Of a stretch of 64,000 nucleotides of DNA, positions 2,596 to 61,534 are shown piece after piece; position 1 is the stretch's first letter, and every line of letters starts with the position of its first letter. The position numbers and the translations under genes were made by a program. Location: the IMG/VR virus record IMGVR_UViG_3300037465_000544; one strand, given 5' to 3'. This DNA comes from a virus. The notes below the pieces were generated by a model that was not told the DNA's origin, ran no database searches, and saw nothing but the letters and a program-made list of their open reading frames with translations.

Positions 2596-2716
2596 ATTTT
2601 TGCCTATAAGGGAAGGGCGAGGAACGAGGCTTGTGCTAAACCCGTGTTAGTTCTCAGAAGGAAAAGCTTAATTAAAGATTAAAAGCACTACATTTGCTAC
2701 GAAAAACGGCAATTGT

Positions 2717-2850
2717 GCATAACGTAAAAGCATTGCCGCAGTAGTGGCATTTGAAAAACAAAAGTTTAAAATATGACAAACAGCTTAATAGAATTACCAA
2801 AGCCCAAATTTGCTACCGAAGCCACTATTGTCGGAAATGCAGTATTATCT
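2717..2850 (+). repeat. attC-like site 1 (134 bp)
   Basis: GCATAAC...GCATTGCCGCAGTAGTGGC / GCCACTATTGTCGGAAATGC...ATTATCT; loop contains ATG 2773. Confidence 0.7.
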
Positions 2851-3303
2851 GCTGCTGCATCTCGTGGGTTCTTCGGCATAGGAATTTTTAACGGCAAGAC
2901 CATTGAAAATGTTGGCACTTTATGGCGTAGTGCTGATTTAATGGGTGCAAAATTCATCTTCACTATTGGTAAACGCTATCGTAAACAGGCAAGCGATACA
3001 ATGAAGTCTTTTAGACACATTCCGCTTTACCATTACGATACATTTGAAGAATTTTATAAATCGCTTCCTTACGATTGCCGATTAGTTGGGATTGAGTTGC
3101 ATGATAAAAGCGAATACATACAATCGTTTTTGCACCCTGAAAGATGCGTTTACTTGCTTGGTGCAGAAGATAACGGCTTGTCAAACAGCGTGATTGACAA
3201 GTGCCATAAACTAATCCAATTGCCAGGAAGATTTTCAATGAATGTTGCTGTTGCGGGGTCTATCGTAATGTATGACCGAATTAGTAAGCTGTCGCAGCAG
3301 TAG
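2773..3303 (+). CDS. SPOUT (SpoU/TrmH/TrmL family) RNA 2'-O-ribose methyltransferase
   Basis: Motif 1 ENVGTLWRSADLMGA, motif 2 YLLGAEDNGLS and motif 3 IQLPGRFSMNVAVAGSIVMYDR; catalytic domain only. Confidence 0.9.
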   Translation: MTNSLIELPKPKFATEATIVGNAVLSAAASRGFFGIGIFNGKTIENVGTLWRSADLMGAKFIFTIGKRYRKQASDTMKSFRHIPLYHYDTFEEFYKSLPYDCRLVGIELHDKSEYIQSFLHPERCVYLLGAEDNGLSNSVIDKCHKLIQLPGRFSMNVAVAGSIVMYDRISKLSQQ

Positions 3304-3304
3304 C

Positions 3305-3437
3305 CGATAATGGTAGGCAGATTTGCATTCGGTGGGGCGTTACACCACCACAGTTAATTTGAAACACTAAATTTTATAATATGCAGAAAGATTCAAAAAA
3401 GCACGACACCCCCACTGACGCAAATAATGTGTTAGCG
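3305..3437 (+). repeat. attC-like site 2 (133 bp)
   Basis: CGATAAT...ATTTGCATTCGGTGGGGCGT / ACACCCCCACTGACGCAAAT...GTTAGCG; loop contains ATG 3381. Confidence 0.75.
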
Positions 3438-3587
3438 GTTGTTTTACCTCCTAAAGAAGATATTTTAAGAGAAGCAGAAAAGCAAATATCTGATTGGTTG
3501 GAAGGAAGCACGGAAGAGGAAAAGGAACATTACAGAGTAGCATTCAGAAGGTCATACGAGTATATTGTTAGGGTTACGAAAGAATAA
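3381..3587 (+). CDS. Cassette-borne hypothetical protein
   Basis: 68 aa; leader MQKDSKKHDTPTDANNV lies in site 2; stop lies in the end repeat. Confidence 0.7.
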   Translation: MQKDSKKHDTPTDANNVLAVVLPPKEDILREAEKQISDWLEGSTEEEKEHYRVAFRRSYEYIVRVTKE

Positions 3588-3588
3588 C

Positions 3589-3719
3589 CGCTAACGTCCG
3601 ACAGCTTTGCGATGGGCGGGATTAGTAACTAAAAATTTGATATGAAAACAGAACTTAATAATAATAATAAACTTTCAATGGAGCAAGAACCCCTGCCTAT
3701 TGCAAAGGTGGTGTTACCT
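3589..3719 (+). repeat. attC-like site 3 (131 bp)
   Basis: CGCTAAC...GCTTTGCGATGGGCGGG / CCCCTGCCTATTGCAAAGG...GTTACCT; loop contains ATG 3642. Confidence 0.78.
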
Positions 3720-3881
3720 GACGTTTTTTCTTCGAAGGAAATGATTGCTTTCGGCAACTTTATCCGAGATAATTACTATGTAGCAGGTTCGCCAAGAATG
3801 TTATCCTATAACCCATCTAAATACCCACACGCAAAAGTTGACGAAATTTTTGTGTATTGGTGTATTGAAAATGGCAGGTAA
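3642..3881 (+). CDS. Cassette-borne hypothetical protein
   Basis: 79 aa; stop TAA 3879-3881 lies within the AGGTAAC left core of site 4. Confidence 0.7.
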   Translation: MKTELNNNNKLSMEQEPLPIAKVVLPDVFSSKEMIAFGNFIRDNYYVAGSPRMLSYNPSKYPHAKVDEIFVYWCIENGR

Positions 3882-4120
3882 CGCATCGGGGCTTTCTGTC
3901 GGGTTTTTTGCGGATTGAAAACTAAAACTTAATTATATGACACAAAAGGAAATAAAACAATTAGCCGAAAAGATATACGAGGAGTATATTTTTGGGGGCA
4001 TAGGCAGACCAAAATACGGGGTTGATTTTGATAAACGGCATATCATACAGGCACTTGAAATGATGGTGCATAAAACGAGGGAATGGCATGCAAAAAACTT
4101 GCAGAAAGCCCATGTTACCG
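3876..4120 (+). repeat. attC-like site 4 (245 bp, long-loop class)
   Basis: AGGTAAC...GGGCTTTCTGTCGGGTTTTTTGC / GCAAAAAACTTGCAGAAAGCCC...GTTACCG; the site holds the first ~59 codons of ORF 3937. Confidence 0.7.
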
Positions 4121-4776
4121 GTTCGTCACTTACGGATATAAGACAACCCGTATTAAAAGCCGGTGCGGCAATTGAAACGAAAATTATCACAGAACACACA
4201 AAAGCTACTATGTTAGAAAACATTGAGCAAAACTTAATTGAATTAATGGCAGACTATTTAGATAGCGAAAGCCTACAACTTGACCAAGCAATAGCATTAG
4301 TGAAAGACCCTATTCCGAGAGAAGAAAGTGAATTGCATATCAGAATGGCAAAAGCCGCTTTTCTCGAATATAAGAAAACTATTGTTAATGCAAACGTTAG
4401 TAGGGTTGAACGTGGTTGGGGCGGGCATTTCATTTGCTCCCACCGATGCTTGTTTCGTAGAAATACCTTACTGACTTATGGTGATATTAATATAGTTGTT
4501 TCAACTGTCGGATTGATGCTGACGGATACTGACAAAACTGGCAGCAATAGGTTTAGTACTATTGGTTATAATAGGCACTACGAAACAATGGCTTTTCATG
4601 CAGCCGATGATAAGTACAAAGATGCGGATGTGAGCAGGCAAATCAGTTTTAAAAGTGATTGTGCTATCGCTGAATTGTATGCCGAATTAAGAGCAAATGA
4701 AATGCACGAAAGAGTTGTAGCGGAGATTACAGAAAGATTGCTAAAAGGAGAAAAGTTTGAACCTACGGAGGGGTAG
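3937..4776 (+). CDS. Mosaic cassette-borne hypothetical protein
   Basis: 279 aa with internal GTT cores at 4114 and 4396 and an internal A-rich in-frame ATG at 4210. C-terminal domain ERGWGGHFIC...RHYETMAF resembles a small phage protein. Confidence 0.7.
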   Translation: MTQKEIKQLAEKIYEEYIFGGIGRPKYGVDFDKRHIIQALEMMVHKTREWHAKNLQKAHVTGSSLTDIRQPVLKAGAAIETKIITEHTKATMLENIEQNLIELMADYLDSESLQLDQAIALVKDPIPREESELHIRMAKAAFLEYKKTIVNANVSRVERGWGGHFICSHRCLFRRNTLLTYGDINIVVSTVGLMLTDTDKTGSNRFSTIGYNRHYETMAFHAADDKYKDADVSRQISFKSDCAIAELYAELRANEMHERVVAEITERLLKGEKFEPTEG

Positions 4777-4783
4777 CTATTGA

Positions 4784-4908
4784 TGCTAACGTATCGGGGG
4801 TTTGCGATGGCGGGCTTCCACTAAAATAAAAACGAAGATATGAACTCAAAAATTAAAAACGAAACTGTCCACGAAGCACAGCCCGCTATTGCAAACCCAT
4901 TGTTAGCG
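4784..4908 (+). repeat. attC-like site 5 (125 bp)
   Basis: TGCTAAC...GTTTGCGATGGCGGGCT / AGCCCGCTATTGCAAAC...GTTAGCG; loop contains ATG 4840. Confidence 0.8.
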
Positions 4909-5235
4909 GTAGTGCCTGAACGCATACTTTGTTCAGCTATTTGGTATAAGGAAATCAAACCTGTTCCATCCAAATTCAGCATACACGGGAAAACGATAGT
5001 AGGCAATATAAGCGAAGGTGTTGTTGTTTGCGGACATAGACACTATAACTGCATACTTACTCTAATTCATTTGTCAGGATATTCTACTACAACACCTGAT
5101 TGCGGAGAATATGAGCAAGGTTTCCTAACATCCAACAACAGGTTTGTCGGAAGAAAAGAAGCTGGACAAATTGCATTTGCAGCAGGTCAAACGAAAGAAT
5201 TAAAAGAAACATTGTTCAGCGAAGATGTCTGGTAG
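4840..5235 (+). CDS. Cassette-borne conserved phage hypothetical protein
   Basis: 131 aa; motifs ILCSAIWY, CGHRH, EQGFLTSNNRFVGRKEA and C-terminal LFSEDVW. Confidence 0.75.
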   Translation: MNSKIKNETVHEAQPAIANPLLAVVPERILCSAIWYKEIKPVPSKFSIHGKTIVGNISEGVVVCGHRHYNCILTLIHLSGYSTTTPDCGEYEQGFLTSNNRFVGRKEAGQIAFAAGQTKELKETLFSEDVW

Positions 5236-5441
5236 GCATTACCGCTAACTCATTTATTAGCGAACATTTTTTATTTTTACTTTAATGATAAACAATGAGA
5301 TAAAAATAAATTTGAAGTTCTACGAATATAGGCTCAGACTCAAAAAGGGGTAATACTATCATAGTTTTGCCTCGATTATTAGTTGAGGCAAGCAAAAAAC
5401 ACAAATAAGCAAACCAAAATAATAAACCAAAACAACAAACC

Positions 5442-5875: not shown

Positions 5876-6358
5876 ATGAAAAAAATGATTTATTTTGCTT
5901 TAACCGCATTTTTACTGTTTGTCGGGCTTTCTATACTCCAAGCATCAGAAACGGCATCCTATACAACAAAATCAAGCACAGAAGGCTCCGATTTAGGCAC
6001 ATTGACTGTCAAAGGGAATGTTTATGATTCGTCATACAGTTACCCAGCCAAAGTTAAAATCTATATTTATAATATAGACGAAGGCACATATAAGATAGTG
6101 GATGCCTTATCGGGGAAATTCAGCATCAAACTTCCTTTGGGAGGAAATTACAATCTGGTATTCCACAAATCCGGTTATCAAAGCAAAACAATCACCGTAA
6201 ATGCTCTGTCTGAAAACAAAAAAGACTACCTGTTTGAATTTGACGTTTATATCAACAGACTTGAGGTTGTAAATGCAAAAACATCCTTGATAAGCAATAA
6301 AGTAGCAGAAATTTATTATGACAAATCAAAAGATTGTTTTTCTTATCTGAAGAAATGA
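5876..6358 (+). CDS. Secreted protein with carboxypeptidase-regulatory-like (CarboxypepD_reg) beta-sandwich domain
   Basis: Signal peptide MKKMIYFALTAFLLFVGLSILQA; pattern TVKGNVYD...G.FSIKLP..GNYNLVFHKSGYQSKTITV. Confidence 0.7.
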   Translation: MKKMIYFALTAFLLFVGLSILQASETASYTTKSSTEGSDLGTLTVKGNVYDSSYSYPAKVKIYIYNIDEGTYKIVDALSGKFSIKLPLGGNYNLVFHKSGYQSKTITVNALSENKKDYLFEFDVYINRLEVVNAKTSLISNKVAEIYYDKSKDCFSYLKK

Positions 6359-6577: not shown

Positions 6578-7420
6578 ATGATTGCCATAACGATAATTGC
6601 ACTGTTGTGTATAATCTTTGCTGTAGCTCAGGAATTGTTAATCCTACGCAAAAACAAAGAGATTATTCTTTACAAAAAAAGAATTGAAACAATTAATGAT
6701 GAAAATGAAATGTTAAATAATATTAATTTTCTTCTGAAAAATCAAAATAAAATGCTAAAGAAAAATAATGAAAGCAGCATAGATGTAATCAAAAAACAAA
6801 ATGAATTGCTGAAAATATTGCCGGATCCGGAAGATTTTGTAAAGATAAAAACAATTCTAAATAATACAAGAGATGCTTTGTTCTGCTATCAGGAAATAAT
6901 TTCAAAAAAAGAGGTACAATACGCTTTAATTACTTCCGATAATCAGGAAAAAACACTAAAGCAGCTTGAGATTCTGAAAGAAAAAATGGAAAGGGTGAAA
7001 AATGATTTACTTGACTTTAATCCGGAAGAAAAAAGAAAAAAGAATATCCAATTTGCAGAAAAGAAAGAAAAAGAACTGAATGATTTGTTTATGAAAGAAA
7101 ATGGAAGAAGGCCAGCAAATGCTTATTCAGAAGAAAAAAAGGATAAAGAAAAAGAAAATACTGAGATTTCTTTTGAATCCATGTATGCAAAATTAAAAAA
7201 AGAAACACTATCGCTCCCGGACAAAATTAACAACTATGAAAATTTTGTAATGTACGTCAACATTCTGATAACGCTTAAGCAGCTGGACAATCCATTAATC
7301 ACATATGACGAATCGGACGAATCTCTTAAAGACATAAAGCGAATGATTGAAAAATTCACCTTCATGATTGAAGAGGCAAAAAAGGAAAATCCCGCCTGGA
7401 ATCAAGCAAAAATTAAATAA
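6578..7420 (+). CDS. Membrane-anchored coiled-coil protein
   Basis: N-terminal TM helix MIAITIIALLCIIFAVA followed by an E/K/N-rich coiled coil. Confidence 0.7.
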   Translation: MIAITIIALLCIIFAVAQELLILRKNKEIILYKKRIETINDENEMLNNINFLLKNQNKMLKKNNESSIDVIKKQNELLKILPDPEDFVKIKTILNNTRDALFCYQEIISKKEVQYALITSDNQEKTLKQLEILKEKMERVKNDLLDFNPEEKRKKNIQFAEKKEKELNDLFMKENGRRPANAYSEEKKDKEKENTEISFESMYAKLKKETLSLPDKINNYENFVMYVNILITLKQLDNPLITYDESDESLKDIKRMIEKFTFMIEEAKKENPAWNQAKIK

Positions 7421-60115: not shown

Positions 60116-61534
60116 TTAATTATTTGGTTTGAAAAGTTCGGCAACCCCAAATGGATTTTTCATACAAATTCCAGTTTCACTTAAAATCTGAACCTGGTAT
60201 CCGTCCATCGAATTGCTTGCAAACTCCTTGCTGTTTCCGCCAGGAGAAGCCATTCCGTCAATGGTCTTGCGAACCATAGAGCGTTTTCCAAGAGTAACCA
60301 ACTCAACCATAGGATCTCCTCCTATTGTGTTACCCAAATTAATGAAAATCGCCCGGTGTGATTCCCTGCTTACGCCATTGATGTCTCTGTCTTGCGGACG
60401 CCATGCTGCATCAAACGCAGGATTCCACGCAACGGTAATTGTAACTCCTCCCATAATATACTGAGTAAAAGTTGCATTTACGCCACGATCTTTCCCATCA
60501 ACAAAAAGAGGCATAGGATTGAACTTGAACACATCACGCATTAAACGCGAAAAGTTCCAAATAAATGCCTGACCTCCCATTGTAAACACCTCAATCTGTC
60601 CGTCTGTATTTGAAAGAAGCTGCAAATTTTGCATTACGTTTTCAAGTACACGAATGTTAAGAGTGTTGTATTGATACTTCAAGCTTCCATCTCCCTGAGC
60701 AATAACACCATCTCCTTGAACAATTTCTCTTCCATTTAAGTCACGAACATATACATTCTCGTTAGCATCAATAGAAGCACGTCCATAAAGAAGCTGGTTT
60801 TCGCGAGCATAAGCCCATCGTCTCATCATTTCCATGTCTTGATGTTTAACCCACAGCTTTTGTCCATTATGCTCTACCCAAAGCACAGTTTCGTTTGCCG
60901 ATCCTGAAATTGAATATTGCATACGCTGAATGGTCATGTAATTGGTATGCCACTCAGGAAACGTATTTTTCTCATAACCGGTTTCTGACATTTCATGGAA
61001 AGCGGTGTGGCTAAAGCCAACTTCCGAACCGGCATTGAGCAACGCCTGTGGAATAAACGAACCCGCAACATTGCTCACCATTTTTGCACGATAACGCCAT
61101 ACACCTGTTGAAATCTCAACCGGATAATCATTCATTATCTGAATAATGGTTCTGCGATCTTTCAACTCCAAGTTGTCATTCGGAGAGAAATAGTTTGTGT
61201 CCAAATCTAAATTGAACACAGCATTGTTTAGGGTAGTCGTTGGTGTGCTGGGCACTGAAGTAACAATCGTTCCCTTGCGAAAAGGATAGCCTTTCAGCGT
61301 CCACATAAATTTACGATTTCCAATAACCTTAAATGAATCTGTATTGAAATCTTCATACAAGCCTTTCTTTGTCATCCCGCGTCTCGCCAGATAAGAAGAA
61401 AATGCCGAAAAATTGCTTTCAAAAAGATTCACTACATTATTGGAAATCTCCGGGCGTGTCAAAAGAGCAGCCGCCAGGGAGTTTGTCATTGTGGTACGAT
61501 TTGCATCAAATGTACCTGTTCCGATAATTTTCAT
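60116..61534 (-). CDS. Major capsid protein
   Basis: 472 aa; NYMTIQRMQYSISGSA, ENQLLYG...GDG..Q, TMGGQAF, ILSETGICMKNP; preceded by a scaffold-like gene. Confidence 0.8.
   Translation of the reverse strand: MKIIGTGTFDANRTTMTNSLAAALLTRPEISNNVVNLFESNFSAFSSYLARRGMTKKGLYEDFNTDSFKVIGNRKFMWTLKGYPFRKGTIVTSVPSTPTTTLNNAVFNLDLDTNYFSPNDNLELKDRRTIIQIMNDYPVEISTGVWRYRAKMVSNVAGSFIPQALLNAGSEVGFSHTAFHEMSETGYEKNTFPEWHTNYMTIQRMQYSISGSANETVLWVEHNGQKLWVKHQDMEMMRRWAYARENQLLYGRASIDANENVYVRDLNGREIVQGDGVIAQGDGSLKYQYNTLNIRVLENVMQNLQLLSNTDGQIEVFTMGGQAFIWNFSRLMRDVFKFNPMPLFVDGKDRGVNATFTQYIMGGVTITVAWNPAFDAAWRPQDRDINGVSRESHRAIFINLGNTIGGDPMVELVTLGKRSMVRKTIDGMASPGGNSKEFASNSMDGYQVQILSETGICMKNPFGVAELFKPNN

Follow-up and report, generated by a model that had tools for sequence, protein, structure and literature searches.

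A probable integron-like cassette array in a crAss-like phage in which hairpin sites start their own genes

We propose as probable that positions 2724-5249 of the viral DNA analysed here (IMG/VR virus record IMGVR_UViG_3300037465_000544) are an integron-like array of five cassettes, situated in the early region of a crAss-like phage, in which the hairpin that serves as recombination site also starts its own gene. The whole stretch (hereafter the window) comprises 64,000 nt, read on one strand 5' to 3', and is assigned to a crAss-like phage on the basis of an open reading frame (ORF) at 60116-61534 (minus strand) that matches the Crassvirus major capsid family (6e-44). The proposal builds on the anatomy of the array, the boundaries of its units, the mobility of cassettes between unrelated phages and a family-wide link between such sites and an Xer-type recombinase, all of which are observed in the sequences compared. 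The distinctive feature is a recombination site that doubles as the start of its own gene; the permuted mechanism put forward in an earlier, sequence-only reading of this DNA (that is, each site starting the gene of the following cassette) is unsupported.

Anatomy of the array and boundaries of its cassettes

Five co-oriented genes lie in 2724-5249 with long imperfect hairpins between them, as seen in the sequence, its predicted fold and its inverted repeats (Table 1). From 5' to 3', a site consists of TAAC, a spacer of 5-7 nt, an arm of ~20 nt, an AT-rich loop of 60-183 nt, a second arm, a spacer of 1-3 nt and GTTA, and the body of the gene that follows is framed by two boxes, R' (the first ~15 nt after GTTA) and R'' (the last ~15 nt before the next TAAC). 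The hairpin loops hold the ATGs of all five array genes (2773, 3381, 3642, 3937 and 4840), as the sequence-only reading had it, and in all five the ORF stays open across the 3' arm and on through the GTTA box to the body. That reading had also given the distances from ATG to the core G at sites 1, 2, 3 and 5 (71, 50, 71 and 62 nt, all phase 2) correctly; the conserved frame that it drew from them stands for these four sites and fails at site 4 (177 nt, phase 0) and in the wider family, which uses phases 0 and 2, and the phase shared by four of the five sites is not significant alone (P about 0.14). Two core sequences need correction: site 1 has GTATTA in place of GTT, and the R'' of site 2 has GATAAT in place of TAAC. 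Because the folding z-scores of single sites are modest (-2.8, -1.6, -1.4 and -0.2; the first is that of site 5, with a dG of -21 kcal/mol), the hairpin structure is backed instead by conservation in the site family and by compensatory changes, which 7 of 16 stem pairs show when 40 sites are aligned. In the SpoU gene of cassette 1, the ATG at 2773 is the sole in-frame ATG, GTG or TTG 5' of the start of the conserved domain, so translation from the loop ATG is required if the gene is functional. The claim that a recombination-site hairpin encodes the start codon and an N-terminal leader was borne out.

Comparison with about 200 related viral loci (numbered in the form L001, for example L004) places the cassette boundary at the 5' TAAC and not between G and TTA of the 3' box; as judged from these alignments, the unit runs from TAAC to TAAC and takes in a hairpin, an ATG, a leader and the body that belongs to them. 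The segment 4794-5249, which extends from hairpin 5 with its ATG and leader through the body to R'', matches L004 3112-3567 at 93% identity, and this copy of cassette 5 has a different array position, upstream neighbour and downstream site there; the unit of cassette 3 (3588-3882/3883) has counterparts of about 90-91% identity in L017 and L090. Beyond such shared units, the 64-kb window is unmatched in L017, L090 and L004 even at the protein level, and cassettes therefore pass between otherwise unrelated phages. In a pair of loci that are otherwise 97-99% identical (L107 and L078), one extra unit of 271 nt stands directly after TAAC in L107, and the same unit recurs in another context in L095. 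Near a site, the left ends of homology blocks of at least 90% identity fall within about 10 nt of TAAC in 20 of 20 cases, and the right ends of whole-unit blocks also lie at TAAC; none of the blocks compared ends at the GTTA of the downstream hairpin.

The hairpin follows the body downstream of it. Hairpin identity is 0.86-0.98 in the 20 pairs with a common downstream body and different upstream flanks, and 0.45-0.60 in the 6 pairs in which only the upstream flank is common (baseline, 0.56). When bodies and hairpins were compared with neighbouring cassettes within 400-nt windows filtered out, the 12 body pairs with at least 85% amino acid identity always had the same hairpin (0.86-0.98) behind unrelated upstream genes, median hairpin identity being 0.92 in this class, 0.74 at 70-85% body identity and 0.64-0.66 below; no body moving together with its downstream hairpin was found among the compared loci. 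In the source freshwater metagenome (Logan contigs), flanks other than those of the window set in at 4792 and 4794, and 5249 is joined to 3879 in one contig; this run may itself be the source of the window, and the breaks there are thus not independent support.

Leaders, bodies and exchange at GTTA

The leader is an add-on to the protein: SpoU homologs align only from residue 29-36, free-standing SpoU homologs begin MRGYFGIGI or MEKYPRGFFGIGI, and the PHROG match of cassette 5 begins at residue 25. A few conserved hairpin modules front many unrelated bodies, and their similarity stops at or shortly past GTTA; for example, the leader of cassette 2 (residues 1-19/23) was found in 33 viral loci with other bodies, and at least three different bodies carry the MKTEL leader of site 3 as an in-frame fusion. 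Capsid targeting by the leader peptide was considered and rejected: leader similarity tracks the DNA stem, and the free-standing homologs have no leader. Window 3871-4152 and L004 3935-4216 have hairpin 4 and 13 codons in common, at 96% identity, and past this point the bodies diverge. The ORF of cassette 4 is a three-part mosaic: residues 1-72 match a gene of L004 (121 aa), residues 84-152 a free-standing gene of 70 aa (L006 4001-4213) and residues 154-278 another free-standing gene, of 128 aa, from a high-GC phage (L005 3995-4381). Also inside this ORF is an 18-nt inverted repeat (4422-4439 / 4691-4708; 94% complementary).

These alignments indicate that hairpin/leader modules and bodies reassort over long timescales with breaks at GTTA, as a minority pattern; a few pairs at 80% body identity have hairpin identities of just 0.53-0.67. 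The sequence-only reading had suggested that homologs be checked for leaders that vary independently of the body and break at GTTA, and this is what is seen over long timescales (the 33 loci, the MKTEL fusions and a DNA methyltransferase body discussed below), whereas close homologs keep their hairpin (the 12 pairs above).

Exchange of this kind is what the permuted arrangement would place at the centre, with crossover between G and TTA in the 3' box and a cassette made of a body, its stop and a hairpin that supplies start codon and leader to the next body. Near-identical hairpins on different bodies, with similarity ending at GTTA, would follow from it, as would one methyltransferase body that stands, from GTTA to TAAC, behind three different hairpins, one source-sample contig that changes at 4900 (just 5' of the R' of cassette 5) and the in-frame joining of all bodies to the MKTEL leader. 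As the main pathway, however, this arrangement is already contradicted: it is at odds with the lack of homology blocks ending at the downstream GTTA, with hairpins that are unrelated in 6 of 6 pairs sharing the upstream body alone, with cassettes 3 and 5 and the L107/L095 unit, which travel with their upstream hairpin, with the whole ORF being 3' of GTTA at 201 of 388 sites in the family, and with the use of two phases, between which free swapping would often break the frame. We consider it very improbable. The unit of body, stop, site and start for the next gene, as first read, thus gives way to units mapped from TAAC to TAAC, and two of its corollaries go with it. A body was expected to be translated only when correctly inserted or circularized, yet because the unit carries its own hairpin and ATG, the body is independent of either event for its start codon; shuffling was expected to keep the frame, and with two phases in existence free swapping of leaders would not always do so. 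Permuted cassettes would have been a real departure; the data show otherwise.

A site family linked to an Xer-type recombinase

Sites of this type occur widely in viral contigs. A search pattern built from sites 3 and 5, in which the 3' arm was required since chance matches otherwise about equalled real ones, gave 61 full sites in a few subfamilies with strongly conserved stems and loops. A hairpin finder, for which a cut-off of at least 12 was adopted (a score of 10 yielded 431 sites versus 181 in shuffled sequence), returned 210 sites distributed over 79 loci, with as many as ten in one co-oriented array. The ATG lies within the hairpin and reads through GTTA at 158 of the 388 non-redundant sites (phase 0, 90; phase 2, 60; phase 1, 8), and the scarcity of phase 1 reflects the stop codon, TAA or TAG, that GTTA(A/G) would give in that frame; at the 201 sites mentioned above, the ORF starts 3' of GTTA. 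R' is complementary to the R'' of the same body: the median exact run is 9-10 nt within a cassette and 4 nt when the two boxes come from one junction or are paired at random (n = 109, 205 and 2000), and a G.T recurs at position 11. Such complementarity is the integron rule (that is, the start of a cassette pairs with its own end), and it fits a circular intermediate in which R'', hairpin and R' would form one long stem.

A tyrosine recombinase of 266 aa is encoded directly downstream of the L016 array and in the same orientation, as is also the case in L002, L003, L036, L042 and L063. The associated enzymes (266-277 aa) have XerA/XerD as their best NCBIfam matches and reach 150 bits, in two stretches, against the integron-integrase model TIGR02249 (cut-off, 265), a low, divided score that would fit absence of the IntI-specific segment. 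In 80 viral loci picked by the recombinase protein alone, with sites counted within 6 kb upstream, 187 sites lie upstream on the strand of the recombinase, compared with control counts of 9 downstream on that strand and, on the opposite strand, 19 upstream and 7 downstream; a site is present in 52 of the 57 loci with at least 1 kb of upstream sequence. With Watson-Crick pairs as the sole criterion for calling sites, and with their orientation set by the recombinase, the non-canonical stem positions of the coding strand were G.T in 316 cases versus A.C in 56, and the spacers measured 5 nt on the 5' side versus 1-2 nt on the 3' side. As G.T far exceeds A.C, the coding strand is the better-folding strand.

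The mechanism that we favour can be envisioned as follows. A cassette starts just past the TAAC of the previous unit and ends with its own TAAC, and contains in order a 5-7 nt spacer, a family-conserved stem of ~20 bp, a loop with the translation initiation region and ATG, the 3' arm, R', the body with its stop, and R''. The R' box (GTTA plus about 11 nt) is cassette-specific and translated within the N-terminal leader, with R'' complementary to its own R'. Recombination would use folded single-stranded DNA, with crossover at the TAAC of the coding strand, which would thereby correspond to the recombinogenic bottom strand of attC in integrons. The geometry (sites, an attI-like end, and then the recombinase pointing away) is that of an integron seen from the bottom strand with its genes inverted, and as a consequence of this inversion the site lies at the 5' end of its own gene and supplies its start. 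The start in the loop may render a cassette expressible without a Pc-type promoter at the insertion end, and a rarer exchange at GTTA may re-pair hairpin modules with new bodies; in this phage, the enzyme may act in trans or may have acted in the past.

Several points weigh against this proposal. A hidden Markov model of the family enzyme (E<=10) and tblastn found no recombinase in the 64-kb window, and the enzyme is also absent from the records of L004 (100% complete) and L090; the array here is therefore comparable to CALINs (attC cassette arrays), and its activity here is unproven. The R'' of cassette 4 is not complementary to its own R'. The boundary between cassettes 1 and 2 has no TAAC, and the presumed right end of cassette 1 was set by analogy; likewise, GTTAGCGAT, not TAAC, precedes the first cassette of L004. 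TAAC is not the sole exchange point, in that leader modules recur on unrelated bodies and one DNA methyltransferase body (L006, L015, L045 and L052; 92-93% identical), with homology that starts at GTTA and reaches TAAC, bears three hairpin types. The joint of 5249 to 3879 could be a strain variant and not an excised circle, and the G.T bias of the sense strand suits an RNA-level role equally well.

Other sites and cassettes of the family add to this picture. A class of mini-hairpin sites that the finder missed spans only ~47 nt from TAAC to GTTA and has a conserved TCGTTTTAAT loop; examples (L006 about 6300-6350 and 7035-7085; L015 about 430-490; oriented coordinates) sit 5' of the methyltransferase body that bears full-size hairpins elsewhere. 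In front of many unrelated genes, the sites of another class of ~88 nt (class a; for example, L006 3558-3680) are conserved past GTTA along a fixed ~38-nt leader as far as the ATG, and each of these genes is followed by a matching R'' (…GCTTGCGGCTAAC), such that the ends are constant and the genes between them exchangeable. The idea that the class-a hairpin marks one single cassette was dropped, as the same hairpin fronts many genes and is conserved to the ATG. Many cassette bodies (L013, L033, L081, L115 and others) have DNA-methyltransferase-like N-termini (for example, …GDCLEVLP…), which, taken with the SpoU gene of this phage, points to nucleic-acid modification as a common cargo. The L004 array is bracketed by a direct duplication of ~77 nt (2965-3041 and 4597-4673) that holds the first codons of a 238-aa gene, as though the array block had been placed in the 5' end of this gene. 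The first position of many viral contigs is within 250 nt of the recombinase gene start (L128, L137, L138, L144, L149, L152-L154, L163, L164, L168, L169 and others), which suggests that assemblies break in the repeated upstream array; arrays are probably under-represented in assembled data.

Around the array, the plus strand of the window encodes a DnaB helicase, a primase and AAA proteins, and the window also codes for an ORF of 5710 aa. The INPHARED phage collection gave no match to the array (distant mode) or to 20 kb of the window, and the sole PHROGs match in the array is to a family of unknown function, for cassette 5. A terminator-like mini-hairpin at 5243-5262, the stem of which takes in the last TAAC and is followed by a T-run, closes the array and is kept in L004; in the right flank, which overlaps it, similarity to recombinase-proximal regions was sought and none was found. 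On the other side of the array, a perfect tandem duplication of 24 nt (2312-2359) lies directly 5' of a small gene (2362-2595) with a weak DpnD/PcfM-like match (E 0.0095).

Table 1 Features of the array and its flanks (window positions)
Feature	Position	Strand	Details
Remnant unit without ORF	2646..2723	+	GTTAG-like box at 2646; ends in TAAC 2720-2723; sequence
Left boundary of cassette 1	2720-2723	+	TAAC, then 6-nt spacer, then 5' arm of hairpin 1
Cassette 1	2724..3311	+	arms 2730-2748 / 2821-2840; ATG 2773; R' 2842-2858; fold
Cassette 1 ORF	2773-3303	+	SpoU/TrmH-type methyltransferase; Pfam SpoU_methylase 3.5e-22, residues 42-167
Cassette 1 R'' box	3294-3311	+	variant core GATAAT; inverted repeat I9, 2840-2858 / 3294-3312
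Cassette 2	3312..3595	+	arms about 3317-3337 / 3409-3428; ATG 3381; sequence, fold
Cassette 2 ORF and boxes	3381-3587	+	68 aa; R' GTTAGCGGT from 3431; R'' ACCGCTAAC 3587-3595
Cassette 3	3596..3882	+	arms 3602-3620 / 3690-3710; ATG 3642; inverted repeat I16, fold
Cassette 3 ORF and boxes	3642-3881	+	79 aa; R' 3713-3727; R'' 3868-3882
Cassette 4	3883..4790	+	arms 3889-3908 / 4092-4111; 183-nt loop; ATG 3937; inverted repeat I4
Cassette 4 ORF and boxes	3937-4776	+	279-aa mosaic; R' GTTACC at 4114 (phase 0); R'' GATGCTAAC 4782-4790
Cassette 5	4791..5249	+	arms 4798-4816 / 4880-4898; ATG 4840; inverted repeats I3 and I7
Cassette 5 ORF and boxes	4840-5235	+	131 aa, phrog_839; R' 4902-4917; R'' 5234-5249
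Right flank of array	5250..5313	+	window 5238-5313 78% identical to L004 4363-4438

Other explanations, known systems and implications

Stem-loops between genes are also known from T4-type phages, in which those termed PeSLs consist of a sigma-70 promoter and a terminator and are shuffled by homologous recombination (PMC2839356, PMC4122927). If the hairpins described here were regulatory repeats of this type, they would be expression signals (promoter, terminator or translation start) placed before each early gene and would likewise be shuffled by homologous recombination. The resemblance lies in repeated stem-loops between small accessory genes, in the modular shuffling, and in the location in an early, hyperplastic region of a virulent phage; loops conserved up to the ATG within subfamilies, a terminator-like hairpin at the end of the array and the absence of a recombinase from this phage would also be accommodated. 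However, the breakpoints cluster at a fixed tetranucleotide, TAAC, and are not spread over 120 nt of homology, the cassette-specific complementarity of R' and R'' would be left unexplained, the family has a dedicated tyrosine recombinase with a tight and oriented link to the sites, and cassettes are exchanged between phages that have nothing else in common. Expression signals, moreover, are not enriched (promoter-like, 9 versus 10.6 expected, in a scan for sigma-70-like promoters with Bacteroidota and phage promoter types outside its scope; terminator-like, 3 versus 2.4 expected), and none is consistently inside the sites. We regard this explanation as highly unlikely.

Alternatively, structure in the RNA may be primary, with a sense-strand hairpin that shows the start codon in an open loop and stabilizes or processes each cistron, and DNA mobility may be secondary. 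Such a role would suit the bias of G.U-compatible wobbles to the sense strand (316 versus 56), two wobble positions that are invariant in 40 aligned sites (though fixed by the search pattern) and the position of the ATG in an A-rich loop, which would favour translation initiation in Bacteroidota. It would leave the unit boundaries, the presence/absence polymorphism and the recombinase linkage unexplained, and a scan of the window against Rfam at gathering thresholds gave zero matches. As the primary explanation we think it unlikely, and because an RNA-level role is compatible with an integron-like array, it need not be an alternative. Single-strand transposition of the IS200/IS605 type was set aside: each unit has a single hairpin, a HUH gene was not seen, and no further test was made.

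Integron cassettes are usually viewed as an ORF followed by attC, expressed from a common promoter. The array resembles integrons and CALINs in that its cassettes are co-oriented and look promoterless, that its sites are imperfect hairpins in which AAC/GTT cores are combined with a spacer left unpaired, an inner stem and a loop that varies, that a start box is complementary to its own end box and not to the box at the same junction, and that cassettes are gained, lost and transferred between arrays as discrete units; a predicted crossover in the 5' box of the better-folding strand and a recombinase beyond the insertion end extend the likeness. Unlike in integrons, there is no IntI-type recombinase with an extra domain next to the array (relatives have an Xer-type enzyme, and the window has none), and in place of an ORF-then-attC cassette with crossover between G and TT in the 3' box of the coding strand, the genes are inverted and the 5' site holds the start codon. 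Further differences are an R box of ~15 bp that is specific to the cassette and has a conserved G.T at position 11, and strong sequence conservation of the inner stem and loop. In integrons of the Treponema denticola type, which have an inverted integrase, a true IntI lies upstream of the array and attC is 3' of each ORF; recombinase and cassette genes have the same direction there as here, whereas here the recombinase is downstream and the site is 5' of each ORF. CALINs have been reported in virulent phages, none of them crAss-like in the text of that paper (PMC9892861), and our literature search found no description of an Xer-type, inverted-gene cassette family.

A more speculative extension, which we hold tentatively and consider rather doubtful, is that the hairpin is a portable recombination-plus-expression module with two exchange points, a common one at TAAC on the coding strand and a rare one at GTTA on the other strand. 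If so, the whole hairpin would act like the overlap region of an Xer-type reaction, with a self-contained cassette as the usual product and, as the rare one, a start codon and leader re-paired in frame with a new body. This would provide a built-in route from a captured, start-less gene fragment to an expressed cassette and could bear on the origin of cassettes.

For the array itself, a site at the front of its own gene means that one stretch of DNA is constrained in three ways, as recombination hairpin, ribosome entry region and protein. The arrangement explains how cassettes inserted at the distal end of an array can be expressed, and why identical ones function in unrelated phages. It is also a warning for annotation, as ORFs of such arrays begin inside a repeat, and it provides clear boundaries for experiments on a recombinase family that seems to lack the domain held necessary for hairpin recombination.

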